From: a phage
Direction: 5' to 3' (one strand)
Length of the DNA: 64,000 bases
Assembly: GCA_024672275.1 (NCBI GenBank)
Contig: GCA_024672275.1_4536.1
Shown piece after piece: positions 3,291-21,669 of this stretch (positions within the stretch are counted from its first letter, which is position 1; every line of letters starts with the position of its first letter). The notes under the pieces are model-generated. The model saw only the letters and a program-made list of their open reading frames with translations. It was not told the origin of the DNA and searched no databases. Position numbers and translations under genes: made by a program.

Positions 3291-5444
3291 ATGAAACAAG
3301 CTATATTTACTGTCACGCGAGACAAGAGAGTAAATGCGAGTTCATTTAACTACACGACTGTTGACGGAACAGCAGTCGCTGGTAGAGATTATATTGCAAA
3401 ATCGGGAACACTTGTGTTCCCTGATGATGCTGATTCTGCTACTATTGTGGTTGAAGTATTTGAACGACCAAAGAACTCAATAGATCTTAACTTCTCCCTC
3501 CAAGTTTCAGGGATTAGTCAAAATAACATGATGGTTGAAACAACCATCAATTGTATTATAACTACTATCCAAGAAAATACTACTCCAATAACTTGGACTA
3601 CAAAAGACGTTAAAATGTTCTCTCCTATGTATTGGACAATAGATTCTCAAGCAACGGAAAGTTGTTCTATTGTATCTCATGGAGACTCTTTTACTGCAAG
3701 ATTTGTAAACAGAACAACAGCAGGTTTGGCAGGGGTTATCTGGAGCACAGTTGACAAATATGACCATAAAGGTGTTGGGTATTTGCCTCACACAGATTTA
3801 AGTTCAGAGAAACTTTGGTTTAAAATGGAAATTAGTCAAAACATGCCAGGTTTTAAAGAAGAACCTTTGGTGCCGACTTTGACTGTAACTCTCCTGGATA
3901 AAAGTGTTCATTATGTCAGTTTAGGATTCTACGCTTCAGATATTTCAGAAGATGGTAAAACAGCCACAATAAAGTTAGATTTTAGTAATATCTTTTCTGG
4001 CCCTAATAATGATATTCCTTTGGATATGAGTGCTGTAGATAATATTTTCTTCTCTTTGATTACAGCAAGGTATGAAAAAATAGAAGAGGTTGTACCTATT
4101 GACAGTCAAGAGGCTTGGTTTACTTTCACTCTTCTTGAACCTACTTCTGGTTACAGTATGATGAAAGTCAGCAACCTTGTCCAGCCTGAACATGATATTC
4201 GCATGTGCACATCTTATGATGATATGTATAACCTGACTCCAGAGAGAGTTATTTATAATACATATGCACTAGGTTATCGTGGAATGATTAACCATTACAA
4301 CGGAATGTCTCACTATTATGAGTTCTCATGGAACGGAACATCTTGGGCTTTAAATAGATCTGTTTTCCTGAATCCGGCTACAGAAGCTTGGCTTAACAGT
4401 TTCCATTCTATAGCTAATGAAAATGGCTACACAATAATGAACTCTTTGAGTTTTGAGTTGATGAGCACAGTTTGTCCTGTTGAATGGGTCCAGCATGATT
4501 GGAACGATGCTCTTGCAGCAACAGGGTATAAGCCTCCTAGTTACGTGTTGTCTCCAACTATTGACGAAGGCATGGAATATTTGCAAAATGTTATTAACAA
4601 AATAGCATCTATTTCTCAAGCTAATAACATTCCAGTCGTCATTCAAATTGGTGAACCTTGGTGGTGGTATAATACAGCAAGTAAAATGCCTTGCATATAC
4701 GATTACACTACCAAACTGGCATTCAACACAGAAACTGGCTTATTTGCACAAGATGCAGGAACAATAGATAATTATAAAACAGGAACGCCGTTTGACGAAT
4801 ACTATGCATTTTTGTCTCGTAAACTGGGGTTAAGAGTTACAAAGTTTGCAACAGACACCAGAGCAACTTATCCTGGAGCTAAAGTAACATTGCTTCCGTT
4901 CTTACCGTCAATTATTGGCAACGGTTTGATGGAGAAAGTTAACTTTCCGTCTGATTACTACATTCCTGAAGCTTTTGATTTTTACTGTTCAGAGTGTTAT
5001 GACTGGCTTCTGGAAGGTAAGATGATGAAAGCATTTGATGCAATTACCATACCACATGAAAAATTAGGTTTTGAATATTCTGATATTCACTATCTTTCAG
5101 GTTTTGTTCCAGATGCTACTCTTGCGCCTTTGTATGGCTTCGATCCTGAATCAAACTACCGCACGTATCTTTGGAAAATGATTATAGGTAATATAGTGTT
5201 GAACGCCAACAAGTTTAACGGACTTACACAATATATATGGGCCTATCCTCAAATAATGCACGATTCCATTACGGTAGTTAACTCTCAATCCCAAGTTTTC
5301 TATATGGGTAATGTGCCTTTGAATTGCTATTTGCAAGATATCACTCTTAAACAAGCAAATGTTGAGATTGCTACCATAAGTGGAATTACATTAGCTACTA
5401 AATCTGGAGAAGATTTAGTAACAACACAAAAATTTTATATATAG
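3291..5444 (+). CDS. tail structural protein, putative fibre or baseplate component (717 aa)
   Basis: SD AAGGGG upstream of ATG; long ORF in tail-gene series; no catalytic motif recognised. Confidence 0.45.
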   Translation: MKQAIFTVTRDKRVNASSFNYTTVDGTAVAGRDYIAKSGTLVFPDDADSATIVVEVFERPKNSIDLNFSLQVSGISQNNMMVETTINCIITTIQENTTPITWTTKDVKMFSPMYWTIDSQATESCSIVSHGDSFTARFVNRTTAGLAGVIWSTVDKYDHKGVGYLPHTDLSSEKLWFKMEISQNMPGFKEEPLVPTLTVTLLDKSVHYVSLGFYASDISEDGKTATIKLDFSNIFSGPNNDIPLDMSAVDNIFFSLITARYEKIEEVVPIDSQEAWFTFTLLEPTSGYSMMKVSNLVQPEHDIRMCTSYDDMYNLTPERVIYNTYALGYRGMINHYNGMSHYYEFSWNGTSWALNRSVFLNPATEAWLNSFHSIANENGYTIMNSLSFELMSTVCPVEWVQHDWNDALAATGYKPPSYVLSPTIDEGMEYLQNVINKIASISQANNIPVVIQIGEPWWWYNTASKMPCIYDYTTKLAFNTETGLFAQDAGTIDNYKTGTPFDEYYAFLSRKLGLRVTKFATDTRATYPGAKVTLLPFLPSIIGNGLMEKVNFPSDYYIPEAFDFYCSECYDWLLEGKMMKAFDAITIPHEKLGFEYSDIHYLSGFVPDATLAPLYGFDPESNYRTYLWKMIIGNIVLNANKFNGLTQYIWAYPQIMHDSITVVNSQSQVFYMGNVPLNCYLQDITLKQANVEIATISGITLATKSGEDLVTTQKFYI

Positions 5445-5452
5445 GAGTAAAA

Positions 5453-6757
5453 ATGTCAACTACAATTACTAATTTACCAGAAACATCAAAAGTTAATGGT
5501 TCTGATTACCTGGTTTTAGACCAATCTGATAAGACTGTTAAAAGCACAGTTTCCAACTTTCTTACTGACACTGGGGTGGTTTTAGCCACCCAGTTGAAAG
5601 ATACAGATGGAGCAGATTTAATACAATCCTCAAATGGTAATACTGTTCAGGAAGAGTTGAATAACAATCTTCTTAATAATCGTGAACAGTGGCGTCGTAG
5701 TCTTGCTGAGGCAGGGTTAACCCTTGTCAACGGTAGCTTTGAAGAAGGGGCTACAGTAAACAATAAGACGGATGCTGTTTGGCATATTGCTGGTGGGCAG
5801 TGCTATACGTGGGATGGTGCTTTCCCTAAAGCTGTTCCCTCTGACTCAACCACTACATCAACCGGTGGTGTTGGAACAGGTGCATGGGTTAGTGTTGGTG
5901 ATGCATCTTTGCGTACTGATTTATCTTCATCTGATGGTGCTGGGCTTATTGGTGTTAGCTCTGGAGGGACAGTACAAGGCTCCCTCTCCGACATTAAGAA
6001 CTTAATTAAGCACGCGCAGCCGCTTTCTGACAGACGCATCGTAGCTATTGCTCACCGTGGATATTCAGAGACGTATTTAGAGCAAACACTGATGGCTTAC
6101 AGTCAATGTAATGCTGATGTATTAGAAGTCGATATGCAAACTACATCAGATGGGTATGCTGTGTGCTTCCATGACAATGACTTGTCCCCTGCTACCGTAG
6201 GAGGTTCTGGGGCGGTAAAAGATAACACATACTCCACCGTTTCCGCATTACGTTTTACAAGAGCCGTCGGTACAAGATACGCAGACATGGCGGGCATACC
6301 GACATTGGGGTCAGTCTGCCGGATTGCTATGCGACGCGGTAAAATGCTTCACGCAGAAATAAAAGGCTACAGAACGTTAGAAGATTGCGCTCTTTACTCG
6401 AGCATAGTCAACCAATACGGCTTGAGTCCATACACCACATTTTCATGCTTCGACTTCGCTCCGTTGGCATACACCCACAACATAAATCCGCGTATTACCT
6501 ACGCACTAGAGTTAAACTCTTACGATAGTAGCATGGACGCTAACATAGCAGAGCTTGCGTCCTGGGGCGGGTCTGTGTTGTCTATAAACAAAAACATATT
6601 GAGCACTATAGGCAATAAGAAGCTTCGCGAGTGGGAGGCTATGGGGCTTACTTTGGCCGCATGGACGATATACACGGCAGAACAAATGCAGACCGTTGCC
6701 AATTACGGCATACGTCTTGTATATCTGGATAAAGATTTTTACAACATTATAGGTTAA
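5453..6757 (+). CDS. tail fibre protein with C-terminal glycerophosphodiester phosphodiesterase (GDPD) domain
   Basis: SD AGGAG; N-terminal fibre-anchor-like segment; C-terminal half has GDPD signature IAHRGYSETYLEQTLMAY...CNADVLEVDMQTTSDGYAVCFHDND. Confidence 0.7.
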   Translation: MSTTITNLPETSKVNGSDYLVLDQSDKTVKSTVSNFLTDTGVVLATQLKDTDGADLIQSSNGNTVQEELNNNLLNNREQWRRSLAEAGLTLVNGSFEEGATVNNKTDAVWHIAGGQCYTWDGAFPKAVPSDSTTTSTGGVGTGAWVSVGDASLRTDLSSSDGAGLIGVSSGGTVQGSLSDIKNLIKHAQPLSDRRIVAIAHRGYSETYLEQTLMAYSQCNADVLEVDMQTTSDGYAVCFHDNDLSPATVGGSGAVKDNTYSTVSALRFTRAVGTRYADMAGIPTLGSVCRIAMRRGKMLHAEIKGYRTLEDCALYSSIVNQYGLSPYTTFSCFDFAPLAYTHNINPRITYALELNSYDSSMDANIAELASWGGSVLSINKNILSTIGNKKLREWEAMGLTLAAWTIYTAEQMQTVANYGIRLVYLDKDFYNIIG

Positions 6758-12869: not shown

Positions 12870-15800
12870 ATGGCAACATTCCCAACATATCCAGCAACGT
12901 CTCTCGAACAGGGCGTAGACCTGGTTATTTTCTCATCTAACCAACTCCATGATGTTATTAATGGAAGTGCTACAGAGAGTATTGAAACAGAATCAGGGTT
13001 GATACCAACCCTGAGAAAAGCCCTTGTTGACAACTTTTTCTTTAAAAGCCCATTAGATTGGGCGCAAGGCACAAACGAAACAGTTTTTAACCAACTTCGT
13101 TATTTCCAGAATGGAGTATTGAGCGGTTATTACTATGCCCCTAACGCTACATTGGTTAACCCAATCCCTATGCAAGGGACTCCAGTAGGAGATAACAACT
13201 GGGTATTGTGGGGACTGAAGACAGAACAATTGGCAACAGAAGTCACCCCTTGGGTATATTCTGGTGCAACTGGTTATGAAACAGTAATCAGTCCTCCTTA
13301 CATCTTTGATAGTGCTATTGTTACGATTAATGGTGTTATTCAGGTTCTGGGGGAAGCTTTCCGTATAGAAGATAGTAAGATCATCTTATCTGAACCTTTG
13401 GGACACGATCCTGCAACAGGACTGCCAAACAAACTTTTTGCTTATATTGGCAAAATCGTAGCTTCAGCAGATACAGATCCTAATCTAGAGAACCGTCTTG
13501 TTAGTTTAGAAACAAAAACGGAAGAACTAACAGAAAGCATGGATAAAGTCCCTCTGCAAACTATTGCTCGTAAGTATGGTTTGTTAGATGATGAGGTGGC
13601 TTACGCAACAGCAGGTCAATCGTTAACAGGGATTAAAGCTCTGTATGATCCGGTAGCGCAGTCTTCCTACACATTACCTCCTAACATCACAGGCACTTTA
13701 ACATCCTTGTCTGTTTCTGGAGTAATGACTTATTCTGGAGGATCTGTAGACCTTTCTGCACTGGCTGTTGAGCGTGGACAGTTTGTTCATTTGCCTACAA
13801 GCTTTGGTAATAATGTAACTCTGACAGCTAAAAATCAGACGATTGGACGTGGCGCTGGTCGTTATCGTTGGGCTGGAAGTTTACCAAAAAGTATTTTGGC
13901 CTCCGATACATTGGAGACAAGCGGTGGATTAGGTCCAAATGCATGGGTTCTGACCAATACAGAAGGACTGTTAACCCCTCGTGGTGGAACATACAACGAT
14001 TTATTCGATGTTGTCTACTTGTCCGAATTTGCTAACAATACAACTACCTATACCACACCAGAAGCAGCTTTCCAGGCGGCACTGTTAGCAGCAAAAGCTT
14101 CGAAAAGCAAGATTCTCGATGCTTACGGTTGCGATATGACTTTCACGACAAGCTCTTTTGATATTCAAGATATCACTTTGCGTGGTGGTGTGTTCCGTGG
14201 TCAACGCGACTATCGTGTGCAGAATGCTACAGTAGAAGGCACAACTTTCCGTAACTCTCGTGTTATGTATTGGGGTGGTGCTGTGCGCATGTTCGATTGT
14301 TTGTGGGACGGTGCTCCTCGCCCAGGTCAAGTTGGTAGCTTGGTATTCCAAGGCAACCCAATATCAGGTACTTTTGAAATTGATAACTGTACTTTTAAAA
14401 ACGGGTTGTATGGCATCCTTCAACAAGGAACAGGGGAACCAGTAACACGTGGTGTCTTCCGTAACCTTACCTTCATGGACATGCAAGGTGATGCAATAGA
14501 ACTGAACGTCATCAATAAACATTATGATGATGGTTGTGTGATTGAGAATATTTACCTGTCTAATATCGATGGGACTAACGCTCCTATTCCTCTGTCCAAC
14601 TGGGGTATCGGTATCGGTGTAGCTGGTAAAGGACCATATGGTTACGGAATCCCTGATGATCAATATTGCAAGAATATTACAATTCGTAACGTTTTTGCAA
14701 AACGTTGTCGTCAGATTGTCCACGTAGAAGTTGGTCGTAATATCTCTATCGAAAACATTCATGGCGATCCAGACCAGACCGTATCTGTTGGGACAGGTTT
14801 GGCAACTGGCGCAGTTGTAATGTATGGAAGTAAAGATTTTACGATTGACGGTGTTTACGGAGAGCCTAAAACAGACGGTAGCACACTTGCAAGTAATATC
14901 CGTATGATTTATTTGGAGTGGGGAACTAACGCAGTTCTGGACGAAGAGGGTAATCCGGTAGTTCCGGCACAGGGTAGACCTTCAAACCCATGCTTTAACT
15001 ATTCTGTTCGTAACATTCACACCAAAACTGGGCGTGTTTTTGCGGGAGTTTCCGCTGGGCCAGGTTATGAAAACAGAGTTAGCTTTGAAAATATTCGTTG
15101 CGCTGCATTGCAGTTGTTCGGTATAGCTTCTTGGCTTTCAATGTCTAACATCACCTGTAATATCTTCGATTGTGTTGGTCAACCTGAATCTGGGCCAGGA
15201 ACATTTTATGATGGATTCTTCCGTAGAGAAAAATCTGTTCTTGAAATGGTTAACGTAAACTGTTACCCAGATGGCAAGACGATGGTTACTGGTCGTCCAC
15301 AGTGGAGCCGTTGCCGTTACTCGGATATTCATCGTGTCAACTGTAATGTTGAAGCTAATATGTATACCAATATCGCAGGTGGTATTGGAGCTATTGTAGG
15401 GACAACGGGCAAAGTTTATTACTTAGAGCCTAACCCTAGTCGAAACATTGATGGAATGCATTTCCCAACAGGGAAAGAGTTTGACAAAGGTGATATGATA
15501 GTCAAGGCGGATAATACGTTCTTCCTTGTAACAACAAGTGGGGCATATATTCCAGATATCCCAGCTTTCGGTATTCGAGCTACACAGGCAGGAGATACAT
15601 TCCTGACACAGAACTTGACTCCTAACGGGACAGCAACAAATGCTTCTTGGTTGTATCATTACCCTCTGTCAGCAGGGACACGTATCCGTATTCCTGGTGC
15701 TGGTGTAGGTGGAGCAGATTTGGACACAGTTATTACTCGTGCACCTTATCAAGATAATGATACGTGGACTAACCCAGTTAAAATAGACATTGCAGATCCA

Positions 15801-15923
15801 ATTGTAACGCCTACAAGTGCTGGAGTTAGAATTAAAACCATACCTAATGATTCCAGTAATGTTTCTGTAGGTAATACTGCGGTTATTCGCCCAACGCCAG
15901 TAGTAGATGTGCCAACAACCTAA
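12870..15923 (+). CDS. tailspike protein with parallel beta-helix (pectate-lyase-like) repeats; putative depolymerase (1017 aa)
   Basis: SD AAGGGG; repeated beta-helix-like coils (GNPISGTFEIDNCTFKNGLYGILQ, NLTFMDMQGDAIELNV, IENIYLSNIDGTNAPI, ITIRNVFAKRCRQIVHVEVGRNISIENIHGD). Confidence 0.6.
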   Translation: MATFPTYPATSLEQGVDLVIFSSNQLHDVINGSATESIETESGLIPTLRKALVDNFFFKSPLDWAQGTNETVFNQLRYFQNGVLSGYYYAPNATLVNPIPMQGTPVGDNNWVLWGLKTEQLATEVTPWVYSGATGYETVISPPYIFDSAIVTINGVIQVLGEAFRIEDSKIILSEPLGHDPATGLPNKLFAYIGKIVASADTDPNLENRLVSLETKTEELTESMDKVPLQTIARKYGLLDDEVAYATAGQSLTGIKALYDPVAQSSYTLPPNITGTLTSLSVSGVMTYSGGSVDLSALAVERGQFVHLPTSFGNNVTLTAKNQTIGRGAGRYRWAGSLPKSILASDTLETSGGLGPNAWVLTNTEGLLTPRGGTYNDLFDVVYLSEFANNTTTYTTPEAAFQAALLAAKASKSKILDAYGCDMTFTTSSFDIQDITLRGGVFRGQRDYRVQNATVEGTTFRNSRVMYWGGAVRMFDCLWDGAPRPGQVGSLVFQGNPISGTFEIDNCTFKNGLYGILQQGTGEPVTRGVFRNLTFMDMQGDAIELNVINKHYDDGCVIENIYLSNIDGTNAPIPLSNWGIGIGVAGKGPYGYGIPDDQYCKNITIRNVFAKRCRQIVHVEVGRNISIENIHGDPDQTVSVGTGLATGAVVMYGSKDFTIDGVYGEPKTDGSTLASNIRMIYLEWGTNAVLDEEGNPVVPAQGRPSNPCFNYSVRNIHTKTGRVFAGVSAGPGYENRVSFENIRCAALQLFGIASWLSMSNITCNIFDCVGQPESGPGTFYDGFFRREKSVLEMVNVNCYPDGKTMVTGRPQWSRCRYSDIHRVNCNVEANMYTNIAGGIGAIVGTTGKVYYLEPNPSRNIDGMHFPTGKEFDKGDMIVKADNTFFLVTTSGAYIPDIPAFGIRATQAGDTFLTQNLTPNGTATNASWLYHYPLSAGTRIRIPGAGVGGADLDTVITRAPYQDNDTWTNPVKIDIADPIVTPTSAGVRIKTIPNDSSNVSVGNTAVIRPTPVVDVPTT

Positions 15924-15986: not shown

Positions 15987-18011
15987 ATGAATTTAACAAG
16001 ACCTAATAGTGCGATAGCCGATCTGGTAGAAGCTACTTATCGAAAACGTCGCAGCTTTGAGGCAGGTTTTACATTACGTAATCCCCGTGAAGTTTTGCTG
16101 TTAGCAGCAGAAGGGAATTATTACCAATGGAAAGGAACTTTTCCTAAAGTAGTTCCAGCAAACTCTACGCCAGCCACCACAGGTGGTATTTCTTCCCTTG
16201 CATGGCAAAATGTTGGGACCGCTGATGATATAGCAATTATCAATGCCAAGTTTACGGCAGTGCAGCAACAGATCGATGATCTGTCGGAAACAATACCTGA
16301 AGCTGGTAAATCAGCTTATCAGATCGCACTTGATAATGGTTTTGTTGGAACAGAAGCACAATGGCTTGCTTCTTTGAAAGGAGATACTGGTGCTCAACTT
16401 AATATTAAAGGATCATTAGCAAGCACTAGTGAGCTACCATCTACAGGTAACGTTGCAGGGGACGGTTATATCGTAGGCGATGTAATCTATGCTTGGGATG
16501 GTTCTGTTTGGAAACTTATTTCTTCTCTTGGGCCAGAAGGGAAATCAGCTTATGAGGTATGGTTGGCAGATGGTAATACAGGATCTGTTTATGATTTTCT
16601 TACCTCTATAAAAGGTGATAAAGGTGATATTGGTCCTACAGGGCCACAGGGAGCACCTGGTGTTAACGCCAACGGTTTTGATTATCGTGGGGATTTGCCT
16701 TCTACAAGTAACTTACCACAACCTAACTCTGAAAACGTAAGCCAAGCTTATTCTATCAATGGTAATCTTTATGTCTCTAATGGGACAGCTTGGGTCAACA
16801 TGGGTAATATTGTTGGTCCTCAAGGTCCACAAGGTGAGGCAGGTAAAGACGGTCTTGATGGAACAGATGGAGATGAAGGGAAATCTGCATATCAAAGTTG
16901 GCTGGATGCTGGTAATGAAGGGACAGAAGTAGATTTTATTGCCTCACTTAAAGGTCCAAAAGGAGACAAGGGTGATCAAGGAGAGCGAGGTCCACAAGGT
17001 GAACTAGGTCCACAAGGACCAGTGGGTGCAACAGGATCAGGCTTAGAGATTATCGGGGTTCTGAACAGTGAAGCTGAACTTCCTCCTACTGGAGAAGTAG
17101 GTGATGCATATAAAATTAATAATGATTTGTATGTTTGGATTCAAGATGCTACGGAATGGATGAATGTTGGCAGTCTTGGAGGAACATCAATTACAGCTAA
17201 AGGTCATGTTCCGAACAGTGAAGCTCTCCCTGTTTATAATAACTATGGTGATGCCTATTTAACTGAAGACACTAGTAATCTTTATATCTATACCTACGAT
17301 CAAGACACCAATTCCGCATCTTTTGTTGACATGGGAAGTATTAAAGGCGACAAAGGTGAAAAAGGGGATAAAGGCGATAAGGGTGATCCTGGAACAAACG
17401 GAACTAACGGTACTGATGGGACCAACGGTAAAGACGGCGCACAGTGGTTTGTAGCAACAACTAATCCAGTCGCAGGTGATGGTGTTATCAATGATTACGC
17501 TTTCAACACTACCACTGGAGCAGTGTTTAAGAAAACAGATTCTTCTACATGGACACTTATAGGAACTCTTCCTAGTATACCAGAAGCCCCTCAAGATGGC
17601 TTGACGTATGGTCGTTCTGATGGTAACTGGATTGAAATATCAGGATCAGATCCTACGGAAGCTATAACACCAACTAAAGTTACAGCAGGTTTCATGGAAC
17701 TTGAAACAACTACTGCCAACTCTGGAGCATCTTGGACCCCTTCTGGAACTTCCAATATGTATGTTGTTACAGTAACCGATGCTTTAACAGTTGGAGCATG
17801 GCCTGGTGTCACTGGCTCTACAAAGCCTAAAGCGTTTTCAGCAATGATTTATTTGATTCAAGATACAACGGGACACACGGTTACACTAGATGCGTCTTAT
17901 GGAGCACTGAATGATACAGAAATAGCAACTACTGCTAACGCAGTAACAATTTTGCAATTAACGTATCCTGGTGTGGGTGATATCGTGGACATGGTTGTTG
18001 TAACACGATAA
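15987..18011 (+). CDS. collagen-like repeat tail fibre protein (674 aa)
   Basis: SD AGGAGA; four G-X-Y tracts (KGDKGDIGPTGPQGAPG; GPQGPQGEAGKDGLDGTDGDEGK; KGPKGDKGDQGERGPQGELGPQGPVGATG; KGDKGEKGDKGDKGDPGTNGTNGTDGTNGKDG). Confidence 0.7.
   Translation: MNLTRPNSAIADLVEATYRKRRSFEAGFTLRNPREVLLLAAEGNYYQWKGTFPKVVPANSTPATTGGISSLAWQNVGTADDIAIINAKFTAVQQQIDDLSETIPEAGKSAYQIALDNGFVGTEAQWLASLKGDTGAQLNIKGSLASTSELPSTGNVAGDGYIVGDVIYAWDGSVWKLISSLGPEGKSAYEVWLADGNTGSVYDFLTSIKGDKGDIGPTGPQGAPGVNANGFDYRGDLPSTSNLPQPNSENVSQAYSINGNLYVSNGTAWVNMGNIVGPQGPQGEAGKDGLDGTDGDEGKSAYQSWLDAGNEGTEVDFIASLKGPKGDKGDQGERGPQGELGPQGPVGATGSGLEIIGVLNSEAELPPTGEVGDAYKINNDLYVWIQDATEWMNVGSLGGTSITAKGHVPNSEALPVYNNYGDAYLTEDTSNLYIYTYDQDTNSASFVDMGSIKGDKGEKGDKGDKGDPGTNGTNGTDGTNGKDGAQWFVATTNPVAGDGVINDYAFNTTTGAVFKKTDSSTWTLIGTLPSIPEAPQDGLTYGRSDGNWIEISGSDPTEAITPTKVTAGFMELETTTANSGASWTPSGTSNMYVVTVTDALTVGAWPGVTGSTKPKAFSAMIYLIQDTTGHTVTLDASYGALNDTEIATTANAVTILQLTYPGVGDIVDMVVVTR
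16611..17439 (+). repeat. interrupted collagen-like G-X-Y triplet repeat tracts within the fibre gene
   Basis: Positions from residue arithmetic (residues ~209-227, 277-299, 322-352, 453-484 of the 674-aa ORF). Confidence 0.6.
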
Positions 18012-18013
18012 CA

Positions 18014-18039
18014 GAAGCCCCGAAAGGGGCTTTCTTTTT
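18014..18039 (+). terminator. intrinsic terminator GAAGCCCC-GAAA-GGGGCTTT + T-tract
   Basis: GC stem with GAAA loop followed by CTTTTT, directly after the fibre gene stop. Confidence 0.6.
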
Positions 18040-18052
18040 ATGGAGGGTTTAA

Positions 18053-20725
18053 ATGTTTCCAATTCCAATATTTACTATTATGACCAGCACTGGTGTCGTT
18101 CCTCTGCCAGCGGGTATTGTTAAAAAAGTAATCACTTTAGATTACCCAGATAATGCTGGTAATTCTAACAGCAGTTTAGCAATTTTGCTTAATGATGGTA
18201 GATTGTTTACTCAAGGCGCAAACCTCTTTGGTGAGATTGCAGATGGAACTCGTAGTGCACGATTCAATAATTTCCACTTAGCTTCTACTGTAGTAGCGGA
18301 TGTGTTTACCGCAGATCGTTGTTTTGTTATTAAAACTAATAGTGGGGGATGGCAATATTCAGGATTGACAGCAGGGTTGGTAGGATCTATAGCAGCAGGT
18401 GGTACGGATGCATGTGTAACTACTTGGACCAGCTTTCCATCTGTAATAACAGGGACTATCTCTTTAGCCAATCTTAAAGAGGTTAAGGGAGGATATAACA
18501 ACACTCTCTGGTTAATGAATAGTGGTGTTCTTTACGGATCTGGTCAAAACACAGTAGGCAGTTTAGGTGCAAGTACTACTAACGAAGTTTCTACTCCTCG
18601 TCAGATAACAAGTGCAGCAGTTGCTTTTGATGCAGGTTACAACCAATGCTCTTATGTCAACAATGTGGGAACCTTGCGTGTTTGTGGAGCTAGTAAAGGT
18701 TTAGCAGGTAATAATAACACAACAACAGCTTTTGTCAATGCCAAGATATCCGCTACTGAAACAGTGTATGTCAAAGATTACATCAATACAGTTTCCCAGA
18801 CAATAGTTGTAGGAGATACCTCCGGTGGCACGGGTACAGTAAACTACTTATATGTCAGGTCTAATACAGAAACAACCTACACTAAACTGGATACCTTTGC
18901 AGCAGGTTTCTCAACATGGAAATTTCCACCAAGCCGCCACTCTTTTTTCGTTGGGATCAACAATTCCTTGTGGGCTATTGGTAAGAACTACACTGCAAAC
19001 TTAGGTTTGGGGTATGATTCTGCGAGCGGAGATCCACTCCAAGTGGGAAAACCAGTTAAACCTGAAGGAGTGGGTTCTTGGGATATAAACAAGCTCACAA
19101 GCGTTCATACGCTGAATATGGATATTACTAACCAATTAGGTTATCAAGGAACCTTTTTCGTTTATAACGGGGATATGTATTATTCCGGTATTTGGAAAGA
19201 TGGGAAAGCCTCGTATCTGTTCAACAGTGGTCTAAATTATAATAAATTCACACCGATAGCAAGCTCTGTGATTACGGGTGATATTCTGGCAACTGGTTTA
19301 ACTACAGATTCTTTAGGAATTTGTATTGTAGGTGGAACTAAACAGTTGACACATTCTGTTAGCCCAGAAGGAGGTAAACTTTTCAATATTAAATACACTT
19401 CTTCTGCCCCTGCAAACATGACAATATCATCCACTGGTTTAATGACTTTCCATGCAGAAGGTGGTTTTGATGCAGGTATGACAGCCTTAAACGCTGAAGG
19501 AACAACTTTATCAGATACCTCTGGAGGATATGCTTCAACATTGAGTGTTTACACCCCTAGCTTATCTGCGATGGATGTAGGAACAACACAAACAATGGTA
19601 GCAGAAATAACGCCAACAGGAGCAGCAAGCTTACCTGGTATGGTTGTTGAGTATACAACTACAGATCCTAATGTTGCTACAGTAGATCCTACAACTGGTG
19701 TAATAACTGGTGTTGGTGATGGTGGTTGTAGAATTGGTTGCACAGCTACGTATCAAGGTGTTGTTACCGCTTCTGATAGTTCTTATTTAACGGTGAACGC
19801 TGTTGCGGGAAAGGAGTTAGCTCCATCTCCGAGTAGTAGTTTAACGGTTCTAAACGGATATTTCAACCACTCGGCAGATGGGGCAATTACGTTCCCAATT
19901 TTATCGGGTACTGTCACACCAGCTAACTTTGTAGTTAAGGTGGATGACGTTGTAATACCTTCAAATAAAGTAATATTTAGAAATAAAGCTTTCTCTACAG
20001 TGGATAGTTATCCAGCAGGAGAATATAGACTGGCTATTGAATTTGCAAGTGCTTCAGTAGTGAATAGTGTTGATGTGTCTATGGAAGCAAATCCAGATCT
20101 TTTAGAATTATGGGGCGGCAACAGAATTGGTTATTCTACAAGCCCAGCCTCACAATTCTTAAAAGGTTGTGCTAACTTAAGACGAATAACTTCTGATTGT
20201 TTTAGTAACACATCTTACACCGGAACATCTATAAGTGGTATCTTCTCTGGCTGTACAAGTTTGACAGCTATCCCTGAAGGATTATTCAGTGATGCTTTAT
20301 TTCCTTCAATGACAACAATGTCAAGCACGTTTGAAGGTTGTACATCTTTAACATCTATTCCTTCAGATTTATTTAAGAATCTATCAAAAGTTACAAGATA
20401 TTCTTACACCTTTAAAGATTGCACCTCTCTTGCAGAAGTTCCAGCAGGAATGTTTGATAATATTCCAACAAAAGTGACCTCTTTAACAGCTACATTCCAA
20501 GGTTGTTTAGCACTTACAGATTTTAATAAAATCTTTAATGACAACCCAGGGTTAACTGTTTGTGGTAAACGTGGAGCATTATCTTCTTTCTTTAGTGGAT
20601 GCACAAATCTTACAGGAACAGGAACAACATTAACAAATACATTAGGTGGAGTAGCTAATAGTTACCTATTCAGGTATTGCACAAAACTTTCTGATTATAA
20701 CAACATTCCTTCTGGTTATAAATAA
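18053..20725 (+). CDS. tail fibre/adhesin with Big_2 Ig-like domain and C-terminal BspA-type leucine-rich repeats (890 aa)
   Basis: SD GGAGGG; Big_2-like segment (TTDPNVATVDPTTGVITGVGDGGCRIGCTATYQGVVTASDSSYLTVNA); LRR units FSGCTSLTAIPEGLF / FEGCTSLTSIPSDLF / FKDCTSLAEVPAGMF / FQGCLALTDF. Confidence 0.6.
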   Translation: MFPIPIFTIMTSTGVVPLPAGIVKKVITLDYPDNAGNSNSSLAILLNDGRLFTQGANLFGEIADGTRSARFNNFHLASTVVADVFTADRCFVIKTNSGGWQYSGLTAGLVGSIAAGGTDACVTTWTSFPSVITGTISLANLKEVKGGYNNTLWLMNSGVLYGSGQNTVGSLGASTTNEVSTPRQITSAAVAFDAGYNQCSYVNNVGTLRVCGASKGLAGNNNTTTAFVNAKISATETVYVKDYINTVSQTIVVGDTSGGTGTVNYLYVRSNTETTYTKLDTFAAGFSTWKFPPSRHSFFVGINNSLWAIGKNYTANLGLGYDSASGDPLQVGKPVKPEGVGSWDINKLTSVHTLNMDITNQLGYQGTFFVYNGDMYYSGIWKDGKASYLFNSGLNYNKFTPIASSVITGDILATGLTTDSLGICIVGGTKQLTHSVSPEGGKLFNIKYTSSAPANMTISSTGLMTFHAEGGFDAGMTALNAEGTTLSDTSGGYASTLSVYTPSLSAMDVGTTQTMVAEITPTGAASLPGMVVEYTTTDPNVATVDPTTGVITGVGDGGCRIGCTATYQGVVTASDSSYLTVNAVAGKELAPSPSSSLTVLNGYFNHSADGAITFPILSGTVTPANFVVKVDDVVIPSNKVIFRNKAFSTVDSYPAGEYRLAIEFASASVVNSVDVSMEANPDLLELWGGNRIGYSTSPASQFLKGCANLRRITSDCFSNTSYTGTSISGIFSGCTSLTAIPEGLFSDALFPSMTTMSSTFEGCTSLTSIPSDLFKNLSKVTRYSYTFKDCTSLAEVPAGMFDNIPTKVTSLTATFQGCLALTDFNKIFNDNPGLTVCGKRGALSSFFSGCTNLTGTGTTLTNTLGGVANSYLFRYCTKLSDYNNIPSGYK

Positions 20726-20726
20726 G

Positions 20727-20756
20727 AAAAGGAGCCATTCGGCTCCTTTCTTTTAT
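20727..20756. terminator. bidirectional terminator hairpin AAAGGAGCC-ATTC-GGCTCCTTT between convergent fibre and ssb genes
   Basis: Perfect palindrome flanked by A-run upstream and T-run downstream. Confidence 0.5.
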
Positions 20757-20781
20757 AAAAACTCTTTATAAATCAATAAGA

Positions 20782-21669
20782 TCAGAACGGAATATCATCG
20801 TCGAAGTCCATTGGAGGTTCTTCTTGATTACTTGGAGTTGGTTCTGGTTGTGGTTCAGGCTTCTTAACTTCTTTCTTCTCTTCTTTCTTAGGTTGTTCTG
20901 CTGAACCACGAATGGCAGCAGCAACTTTATCAGACAGGGCCAGAACTTTACGAGCAGAATCAATCAGATCTTCTACAGATACAGTCTTAATGGTATGGTC
21001 TTTACAAGCATTGAGGATAGCGTGACCAACAGATGCCCCAAGATCATAATCATTAATATCAACGCCACGAGATTCAGCAATTTCCGATTTCAGTGTGACA
21101 GTTGCAGATTGAACAACCCCAGCGATATCGAAAGCATCGCCTTTAACACCATTACGAATCAGTTCCAGTGCACCATTTACTGCGTGACCAGTTTCCAGAC
21201 CTACAGTATCACGTTTTTTATAGGACTGCTTAGGAGCAGCATCGTTGGAACCTTTATTGCCAGAAGATTTGTTAGACTTCTGAACACCATCGGTAGACAA
21301 TACTGTAATACGAGATTTTTTAGTATTGTAGTAAGTTTTACCGCCTTTATTATCAACGCGATCAATATCAATACTTACTTCTACACCTTTTTCAATAGTG
21401 ATCCAATTATCACCTTCTTTGACTTGCAGGTTTTCATAACCTTCTTTCAGTTCAATATCACCAAGAGAAATCCAAACACCTTTCTCATCTGGTTTAGCAC
21501 CTTTCTCTTTCAGAACAAGAGAAGCTCGGTGAGTTGAAACAATCGTTTTTCCTTCCCAATGAAAAGTTTTAGGTTCGGCGAATTTATCCAGTTTAACGTA
21601 GTCTACGATACCAGTTGCATAAGTTACGGTTTTGCCTTTACGATCAGTTTCAGTATTAATTACGGACAT
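20782..21669 (-). CDS. ssb: single-stranded DNA-binding protein with acidic C-terminal tip DFDDDIPF (295 aa)
   Basis: SD GAGGAG; K/E/P-rich linker then C-terminal ...PPMDFDDDIPF-stop, the canonical SSB-Ct interaction motif; heads the replication block. Confidence 0.6.
   Translation of the reverse strand: MSVINTETDRKGKTVTYATGIVDYVKLDKFAEPKTFHWEGKTIVSTHRASLVLKEKGAKPDEKGVWISLGDIELKEGYENLQVKEGDNWITIEKGVEVSIDIDRVDNKGGKTYYNTKKSRITVLSTDGVQKSNKSSGNKGSNDAAPKQSYKKRDTVGLETGHAVNGALELIRNGVKGDAFDIAGVVQSATVTLKSEIAESRGVDINDYDLGASVGHAILNACKDHTIKTVSVEDLIDSARKVLALSDKVAAAIRGSAEQPKKEEKKEVKKPEPQPEPTPSNQEEPPMDFDDDIPF

Follow-up and report, generated by a model that had tools for sequence, protein, structure and literature searches.

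Receptor-binding proteins with exchangeable tips, such as the T4 gp37/gp38-type fibres and the branched tailspikes of the Ackermannviridae, have a conserved N-terminal part and a variable C-terminal module, undergo mosaic exchange between phages, and occur several to a virion. These proteins are trimeric fibres or beta-helix spikes with defined anchors. Leucine-rich repeats (LRRs) of the BspA type are known from bacterial surface proteins of the LRR_5 family, for example Tannerella forsythia BspA, T. pallidum TpLRR (6mlx), and BACOVA_04585 (4fs7). TpLRR-type repeats are ~23 amino acids (aa) long. In the literature searched, no LRR protein was found that had been characterised by experiment as a phage receptor-binding protein, and a 2026 preprint predicts LRR/beta-helix domains on the host-recognition proteins of Goslar. 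Here, we describe a gene in a 64,000-nucleotide (nt) stretch of phage DNA (assembly GCA_024672275.1, contig GCA_024672275.1_4536.1; the whole stretch is called the window). The gene, at 18053..20725, encodes an 890-aa protein that resembles the exchangeable-tip proteins in its modular layout and ends in an LRR of the BspA/DUF285 superfamily.

The gene is already known as a tail protein gene. At the DNA level it matches 68 phage records, 34 of them over its full length, with mostly 95–99% identity. Almost all of these records are E. coli myoviruses of the genus Phapecoctavirus (Stephanstirmvirinae) with genomes of ~150 kb, and the protein is 98–99% identical across more than 30 phage genomes. 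The matching records annotate it as “tail protein” or “hypothetical protein” (tuntematon gp128 is an example), and PHROG 11922, “tail protein”, matches it end to end. In the literature searched it has been treated only as a “tail protein” or as “TfpM1”; the work that names it reports its absence from Justusliebigvirus and a concentration of variation in its C-terminal region, without a domain analysis (PMC12695924). What is new is the domain map, the exact cassette boundaries, and the placement of a BspA/DUF285-type LRR in a putative receptor-binding slot. The open reading frame (ORF) is a complete coding sequence with ATG at 18053 and stop at 20723-20725, exactly where an earlier note, made from the sequence alone, had placed it. 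The features of the gene and its borders are as follows (AF2, AlphaFold2 model; pLDDT, its per-residue confidence measure).

18014..18033, plus strand: terminator-like hairpin GAAGCCCC-GAAA-GGGGCTTT followed by a T-run (terminator scan, sequence)
18042..18047, plus strand: ribosome-binding site GGAGGG, 5 nt upstream of the ATG (read from the sequence)
18053..20725, plus strand: coding sequence, “tail protein” (tuntematon gp128, “TfpM1”; ORF, PHROG 11922, synteny)
18053..18073, plus strand: N-terminal heptapeptide MFPIPIF, M-x-P-I-P-[IL]-[FL], with M1, P3, and P5 invariant
18071..19192, plus strand: RCC1-like beta-propeller, aa ~7-380 (Pfam, Foldseek, AF2)
19193..19282, plus strand: flexible linker, aa 381-410 (low pLDDT; the most variable segment)
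19283..19540, plus strand: Big_2 immunoglobulin (Ig)-like domain 1, aa 411-496 (Pfam, AF2)
19541..19804, plus strand: Big_2 Ig-like domain 2, aa 497-584 (Pfam, AF2); the domain ends in DSSYLxVNAV, which forms the 5' boundary of recombination for the cassette
19805..20722, plus strand: exchangeable C-terminal cassette “A”, aa 585-890, with linker, PKD-like sandwich, and LRR (protein and DNA breakpoints)
within the cassette: short linker, aa 585-597 (AF2)
19844..20122, plus strand: PKD-like beta-sandwich, aa 598-690 (AF2, consensus of relatives, hhalign)
20150..20722, plus strand: LRR solenoid, aa 700-890, seven repeats and a helical C-terminal cap (motif scan, AF2, relatives)
20728..20749: intrinsic terminator, bidirectional, AAAGGAGCC-ATTC-GGCTCCTTT, where convergent genes meet (z = -5.75)

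The domain architecture, the LRR fold, and the cassette boundaries can be regarded as established. For the function of the protein, we put the chance that it serves the tail apparatus as an accessory adhesin or receptor-binding protein of modular build slightly above even. It presents, in order, a conserved N-terminal peptide, the RCC1-like propeller, a flexible linker, two Big_2 spacers, and an exchangeable cassette with a PKD-like sandwich and a seven-repeat LRR. Docking on the virion would fall to the conserved N-terminal part (the heptapeptide, with or without the propeller and the Ig pair), and the Ig domains would serve as a stalk. A structure of the bacterial surface would be bound by the LRR, probably on the concave face of its beta-sheet. 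This would give the phage one more reversible adsorption specificity beside those of the GDPD, colanidase-like, and collagen-like proteins. Specificity would shift between lineages through homologous recombination of whole cassettes, and not through switching within a genome, with crossovers at the conserved end of Big_2 domain 2 and at the conserved bidirectional terminator.

The cassette on this chassis differs among related phages. In three relatives (P0008-P0010), aa 1-584 are 97.6% identical and the rest is unrelated, with the breakpoint at aa 584. The DNA of Klebsiella phage ZCKP1 is 95.8% identical to the window up to nt 19803 (codon 584) and shows no similarity over 19804-20720; the similarity is back at 20721-20756. 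The conserved 3' boundary of the cassette is the terminator at 20728-20749, which has a folding z-score of -5.75 and is kept even in a Justusliebigvirus. The upstream fibre genes remain ~96% identical across the swap between cassettes A and B. At least four cassette types, in addition to cassette-less forms, have been found on this chassis.

Cassette A (this phage): PKD-like sandwich and LRR
Cassette B: a ~305-aa “GNGWYR...GLKYYD” domain
Cassette C: PKD-like sandwich and canonical DUF285 (133 bits)
Cassette D: unique
No cassette: forms of 564-573 aa that end after Big_2 domain 2

Homologues of cassette B include the solved “tail fiber protein gp17” (9occ, E 4e-17) and the head spike fibre of RcGTA (6tb9, E 5e-13), and the cassette is also present in the “tail tip protein M” genes of siphoviruses (Kagunavirus). 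Because cassette B is homologous to a solved tail-fibre tip, it is suggested that the slot holds genuine ligand-binding tips. The receptor-binding reading gains support from this homology, both to a tail-fibre tip and to a head-spike fibre, and from the swapping of the C-terminal third; the earlier note's description of a receptor-binding candidate is strengthened to that extent. Between cassettes A and C, hhalign shows the PKD-like sandwich to be homologous (probability 97.6%). Its alignment covers this sandwich only, and the similarity between the LRR parts of A and C comes from one BLAST match (30% identity, E 6e-5). In a “Wecvirus”-like lineage, cassette A is 90–92% identical to the query while the chassis is 76–81% identical, and this better conservation of the cassette points to its lateral transfer. 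A “switchable” host range, as had been suggested for this phage, is left without basis, since no inversion sites, flanking inverted repeats, silent cassettes, or template repeats like those of diversity-generating retroelements were found in the 64-kb window. As no internal switch was found there, the variation appears to occur between genomes.

A natural fusion of 396 aa (P0041; L002:8001-9191, Logan SRR10359460_34) has been observed, in which the first 73 aa of the collagen-like fibre, its Tail_spike_N domain, are joined in frame to aa ~567-890 of the protein. The fusion corresponds to a 3.5-kb deletion at an imperfect 25-nt microhomology, with the junction at about window positions 16206-16230 and 19754-19778. 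An assembly artefact is unlikely because no exact 31-mer is shared, as judged from the assembled sequence. The sequence of this fusion suggests that the LRR tip tolerates a different anchor.

The LRR in cassette A contains seven [FL]-x-x-C-[TSALP]-x-[LMI] motifs, which start at aa 703, 731, 760, 787, 815, 847, and 873 and are spaced by 26–32 aa. Shuffled sequences contain 0.12 motifs on average and 3 at most (20,000 shuffles), so that the F-x-G-C-T-S-L-T type repeats noticed previously are well founded. The predicted structure has the fold of the LRR superfamily, a curved solenoid with one short beta-strand per repeat that together form a parallel sheet. Hidden Markov models (HMMs) of the known families score below their cut-offs. 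LRR_5 (PF13306) does not match the full protein and reaches 17.1 bits (E 0.0054; cut-off 27.7) on aa 585-890, DUF285 (PF03382) reaches 13.3–15.2 bits (cut-off 25), and PARCEL (TIGR02167) reaches 17.3 bits (cut-off 30). Direct HMM membership in LRR_5, DUF285, or PARCEL has been rejected, as every curated cut-off is missed. The assignment is based instead on the fold and on transitive homology.

Significant relatives of aa 585-890 (n = 203) are mostly metagenomic proteins of 350–530 aa. At E ≤ 0.001, LRR_5 is matched by 22 of 57 aligned relatives (best E 1e-16), DUF285 by 11/57, and LRR_8 by 6/57. One relative from Phocaeicola (P0048, E 2.7e-40) carries the NCBI name “BspA family leucine-rich repeat surface protein”. 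The consensus of the relatives begins with “VDWGDG...”, continues with the repeat [F-x-x-C-T-x-L-T-S-I-P-x-x-L-F-x5-V-T-x-F-x3], and ends with a C-T-x-L-x-N-Y-x-x-I-P-x-x-W cap. The PKD-like sandwich, which the earlier note had missed, is homologous to this “VDWGDG” domain preceding the LRR in the relatives. An exhaustive HMMER scan returned 14,415 representative clusters with E ≤ 1e-3, of which 787 have E ≤ 1e-30; giant proteins of 1,000–7,400 aa with 10–26 matched stretches each head the list. Bacterial surface proteins are the main home of the repeat, in agreement with its earlier description as one usually seen in bacterial surface adhesins. The LRR call is thus correct at the level of the fold and of the BspA/DUF285 superfamily. 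Of the proposed BspA-like LRR, the fold and the family-level homology stand, but the LRR_5 match of this particular sequence falls short. HMM support is therefore split, with the LRR below and Big_2 above the cut-off, and the fold and family-level evidence outweigh the missing half. A close relative of the LRR cassette, P0044 (503 aa, ENA metagenome), has a prepilin-like hydrophobic N-terminus (MKKRKKKNAITLLALVITIVIMLLLAG...) followed by very regular 27-aa C-T-G-L-T-S-I-P-E-G-L-F-K-N-N-V-N-V repeats, and by its sequence could be an LRR displayed on a pilin-like anchor.

By comparison with the BspA/TpLRR surface proteins, the phage protein is below the LRR_5 cut-off (17.1 vs 27.7 bits) and has its Ig domains before, not after, the LRR. 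It lacks a signal peptide and a cell-wall or type IX secretion system anchor, and is encoded in a phage tail module. The F-x-x-C-T-S-L-T-x-I-P repeat is present, but with a period of 26–32 aa vs the ~23 aa of TpLRR. The DUF285/PARCEL proteins with 26-residue repeats are similar to it in their period (~26–28 aa), in the shared half-repeat “...V-T-x-M/F-x-x-x-F-x-G-C”, and in weak matches, and sister phage proteins have an unambiguous DUF285 cassette (133 bits) after a homologous PKD-like sandwich. On the other hand, the protein is under both of these cut-offs and has C-T-S-L-T-x-I-P in place of the F-N-Q-D-I-S-x-W-D/N signature. In relation to the exchangeable-tip proteins, it shares the conserved N-terminal part, the variable C-terminal module, the mosaic exchange between phages, and the putative presence of several such proteins per virion. 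It differs from the trimeric fibres and beta-helix spikes in being a predicted globular chain with an LRR tip.

The full-length AF2 model has a pLDDT of 79.6 and a predicted template modelling score (pTM) of 0.49, in line with a chain of separate beads. A propeller, which had also been missed, takes up the first 380 residues (43% of the protein). Pfam RCC1 (PF00415) passes its cut-off with 23.9 bits (cut-off 21.7), while WD40_RLD (the RCC1-like domain, PF25390) matches with 42.9 bits and E 5e-11 (cut-off 150). Foldseek matches the full-length model to UVR8, RPGR, HERC2, and RCC1 with E 4e-14 to 1e-9 and target TM 0.53–0.68; the best propeller matches have E ~4e-14 and target TM 0.63–0.68. The propeller fold, of the seven-bladed class, has been assigned from these matches, without a direct blade count. 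A PDB sequence search with the full protein gave weak LRR and RCC1 matches, including RPGR and UVR8, and no solved phage homologue. The Big_2 Ig-like domain that had been proposed holds, and is in fact a pair. Pfam Big_2 (PF02368) scores 36.0 bits (cut-off 22.8, E 7e-09) over two stretches, the best at aa 505-565, and the AF2 model shows two all-beta Ig-like sandwiches at aa 411-496 and 497-584 with pLDDT mostly 80–93. The Big_2 domains also match PHROG 215, “structural protein with Ig domain”, and there are further matches to PHROG 4219, 7220, and 16766, “regulator of chromosome condensation”.

Proteins in the same slot, that of the last tail gene, have been found in other phages. In rV5, gp27 (1,878 aa) is syntenic, has a long array of Ig-like domains, and is ~39% identical to aa 1-195 of the protein. 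Bas62_0035 (942 aa) of a Justusliebigvirus lacks the propeller; it opens with the Big_2 pair (62% identical) and carries cassette B at its end. In phi92, gp152 (202 aa) consists of the Big_2 pair only (~64% identical, tblastn). None of the three carries the LRR cassette. The heptapeptide M-x-P-I-P-[IL]-[FL] is common to the protein, rV5 gp27 (L005:6001-), Bas62_0035 (L007:2090-), and phi92 gp152 (L004:5956-) in spite of the different domains that follow it, and from this pattern may be a candidate virion-attachment peptide. The slot at the end of the tail-fibre cluster is conserved across three phage groups, and conservation of the propeller extends over Phapecoctavirus, Cronobacter, and Salmonella phages.

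A comparable combination of an anchor, Big_2, and a BspA-type LRR is found in gp35 of Klebsiella phage ST16-OXA48phi5.4. This protein, encoded in a baseplate/tail-fibre locus, contains Tail_P2_I, Big_2, LRR_5 (41 bits), and DUF285 (32 bits), and is 32% identical to aa 113-305 of the cassette. It differs in having a canonical Tail_P2_I anchor and not a propeller and in belonging to the temperate Peduoviridae (P2-like “tail protein I”), and is likewise uncharacterised. One cassette relative lies within a crAss-like tail module and another in a bacterial chromosome, and BFVD contains many phage proteins of similar PKD and LRR fold from uncultured phages and cyanophages.

Returning to the role of the 890-aa protein as a tail adhesin, its location within a tail/baseplate-fibre module and the combination of a conserved proximal part with an exchangeable distal domain are features of tail and receptor-binding proteins. 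Several observations weigh against this role. The trimeric fibrous or beta-helical architecture with a recognised anchor that is typical of such proteins has not been found. No coiled coil, beta-helix, or trimerisation motif is predicted in the protein, and the Tail_spike_N anchor of its three neighbours was not found in it. Within the LRR, no clear hot spot on the concave face was seen among 13 cassette-A sequences, in which variation is spread diffusely over the positions outside the conserved scaffold residues. Both cassette-A and cassette-B phages have been obtained with E. coli K-12 as the isolation host, so plating on this strain does not depend on which of the two is present. The gene looks dispensable, as the propeller is missing in Justusliebigviruses, the phi92 protein is the Ig pair alone, and truncated or cassette-less forms are common. 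A Phapecoctavirus virion proteome was not found in the literature searched, nor was any proteomic, structural, or genetic placement of the protein on virions of this genus. In rV5, gp27 has been detected in virions, but as a weak signal of 3 peptides and 3.1% coverage. The 2026 cryo-EM study of phi92 does not mention the syntenic gp152, and the extended BASEL paper has no mention of these phages. The “gp152” in a transposon-mutagenesis preprint is that of PhiKZ. The strong hairpin at 18014-18033, between the collagen-like fibre gene and the ribosome-binding site, is a terminator directly upstream and suggests low expression of the gene. Inspection of the sequence between this hairpin and the start codon at 18053 showed no promoter-like site, and the protein may be expressed by read-through of the hairpin, implying a low copy number.

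All of the predicted domains are globular, normally monomeric folds, and the protein is probably a monomer shaped like beads on a string. A classical trimeric fibre has been rejected as the default, as no fibrous or trimerisation element is predicted. The word “fibre”, which had been applied to this protein, is therefore doubtful.

Globular, normally monomeric folds of this kind would also suit a decoration of the virion, similar to Hoc, or an environmental adhesin, along the lines of the “adherence to mucus” model, and the match of the Big_2 domains to PHROG 215 would fit it. The Ig, propeller, and LRR domains would then bind mucins, the matrix of the host animal, or non-bacterial glycans, and would keep the phage in its gut niche instead of recognising a bacterial receptor. 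Bacterial BspA-type LRR proteins bind eukaryotic matrix proteins. The apparent dispensability of the gene, the terminator in front of it, and the failure of the cassette type to separate the K-12-isolated phages also agree with a decoration. We nevertheless consider this explanation unlikely. The gene is located in the tail-fibre cluster and not among the head genes, a homologue of cassette B serves as a bacteria-recognising tail-fibre tip, a P2-like phage has an LRR of the same type joined to its baseplate protein I, and the replacement of whole cassettes is the classic signature of a host-range determinant. Should the LRR tip fail to bind bacteria, the protein would be an ordinary dispensable decoration.

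The polarity of the protein could also be the reverse of that proposed, with the C-terminal LRR docked on a co-varying fibre component and the propeller exposed as a lectin for a conserved glycan such as the lipopolysaccharide core or ECA. Protein-protein binding is typical of LRRs, and beta-propellers often serve as lectins. The conservation of the propeller in Phapecoctavirus, Cronobacter, and Salmonella phages would be consistent with this, as would the P0041 fusion, in which the cassette can be expressed on a Tail_spike_N anchor. This arrangement is quite improbable, however, because no co-varying partner is evident among the upstream fibre genes, which stay ~96% identical across the A/B swap, because the Justusliebigvirus proteins have no propeller yet keep the N-terminal peptide, the Ig pair, and the C-terminal cassette, and because the relatives of cassette B are distal tips. 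Even less credible, in our view, is a protein outside the virion, produced late and either intracellular or released, whose position next to the tail genes would be incidental. The PHROG labels 4219, 7220, and 16766 and the filing of some RCC1-like PHROGs under nucleotide metabolism point in this direction, but the labels look like a transfer of names from the fold. The upstream terminator could mark a separate expression regime, and direct virion data are absent from the literature searched. These points are countered by the full-length match to the “tail protein” PHROG 11922, the conserved slot that closes the tail-fibre cluster in three phage groups, the rV5 gp27 peptides in virions, and the homology of cassette B to tail-fibre and head-spike proteins. 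The role as a modular tail adhesin remains the one that we favour.

The gene order around 18053..20725 agrees with that of the tuntematon gp128 locus. As had been recognised, the gene is the last of the tail module, being the final plus-strand gene ahead of convergent minus-strand replication genes, and the GC skew changes sign at ~20.7 kb, at its end. In ZCKP1, which carries cassette B, an extra 135-aa minus-strand gene, “baseplate wedge protein gp25” (L006:4440-4847), lies directly past the shared terminator; the window (compare 20757-20785) is without it. The phi92 gp153 gene (L004:6731-7618; 295 aa) has been annotated on the plus strand with the remark “no RBS, weak prodigal statistics”. 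Its length equals that of the minus-strand gene at 20782-21669 downstream of the 890-aa protein gene in the window, and by this comparison the gene call is probably on the wrong strand. Five records (MG065650.1, MG065646.1, OR584014.1, OP562383.1, and MH252123.1) are labelled as Campylobacter, Pseudomonas, Acinetobacter, or Klebsiella phages. They closely match the E. coli Phapecoctavirus gene (the cassette is 90–95% identical in two) or its rV5-type or cassette-B versions, and from these matches their host labels look doubtful.

The module also encodes a GDPD protein (5453-6757), a colanidase-like protein (12870-15923; 1,017 aa), and a collagen-like protein (15987-18011), all three with a Tail_spike_N (TSP1/gp66-type) anchor. 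By analogy, these anchors suggest a branched receptor-binding complex like that of the Ackermannviridae. The 890-aa protein had been counted as a fourth receptor-binding candidate beside a GDPD fibre, a beta-helix spike, and a collagen fibre; the GDPD and collagen-like proteins are indeed present, together with the colanidase-like protein. The collagen-repeat protein is a homologue of phi92 gp151, and the “collagen fibre” may not be a tail fibre. Another ORF, at 3291-5444 (717 aa), contains Calx-beta, NCTSP_N, and TIM-barrel_NCTSP domains (the TIM barrel of a “non-contractile tail sheath protein”, 266 bits), and its domain content makes an enzymatic tail component possible.

Phapecoctaviruses rank among the coliphages of broadest host range that are used in therapy and biocontrol cocktails; which receptors they use is unknown (PMC10844046). 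The cassette junctions (codon 584 and the terminator at 20728-20749) offer ready-made sites for host-range engineering, and the natural A, B, C, and D variants on one chassis permit direct swap experiments. A wider proposal can be made with caution, although we hold it rather less probable than its opposite. BspA/DUF285 LRR solenoids would form a genuine class of receptor-binding tips in phages that has hitherto gone unrecognised. Such tips would be taken from bacterial surface adhesins or held in common with them, displayed on non-trimeric Ig-stalk proteins, and exchanged as PKD and LRR cassettes among Phapecoctavirus, P2-like, and crAss-like phages and cyanophages. If this is true, the protein, which comes from easily cultured E. 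coli phages, would be a tractable model for the class. If the LRR tip binds bacteria, it would add an LRR-type, probably monomeric module to the receptor-binding folds of phages, which are dominated by trimeric fibres and beta-helices, and would connect these folds with a family of bacterial surface repeats that is very large (14,415 clusters).

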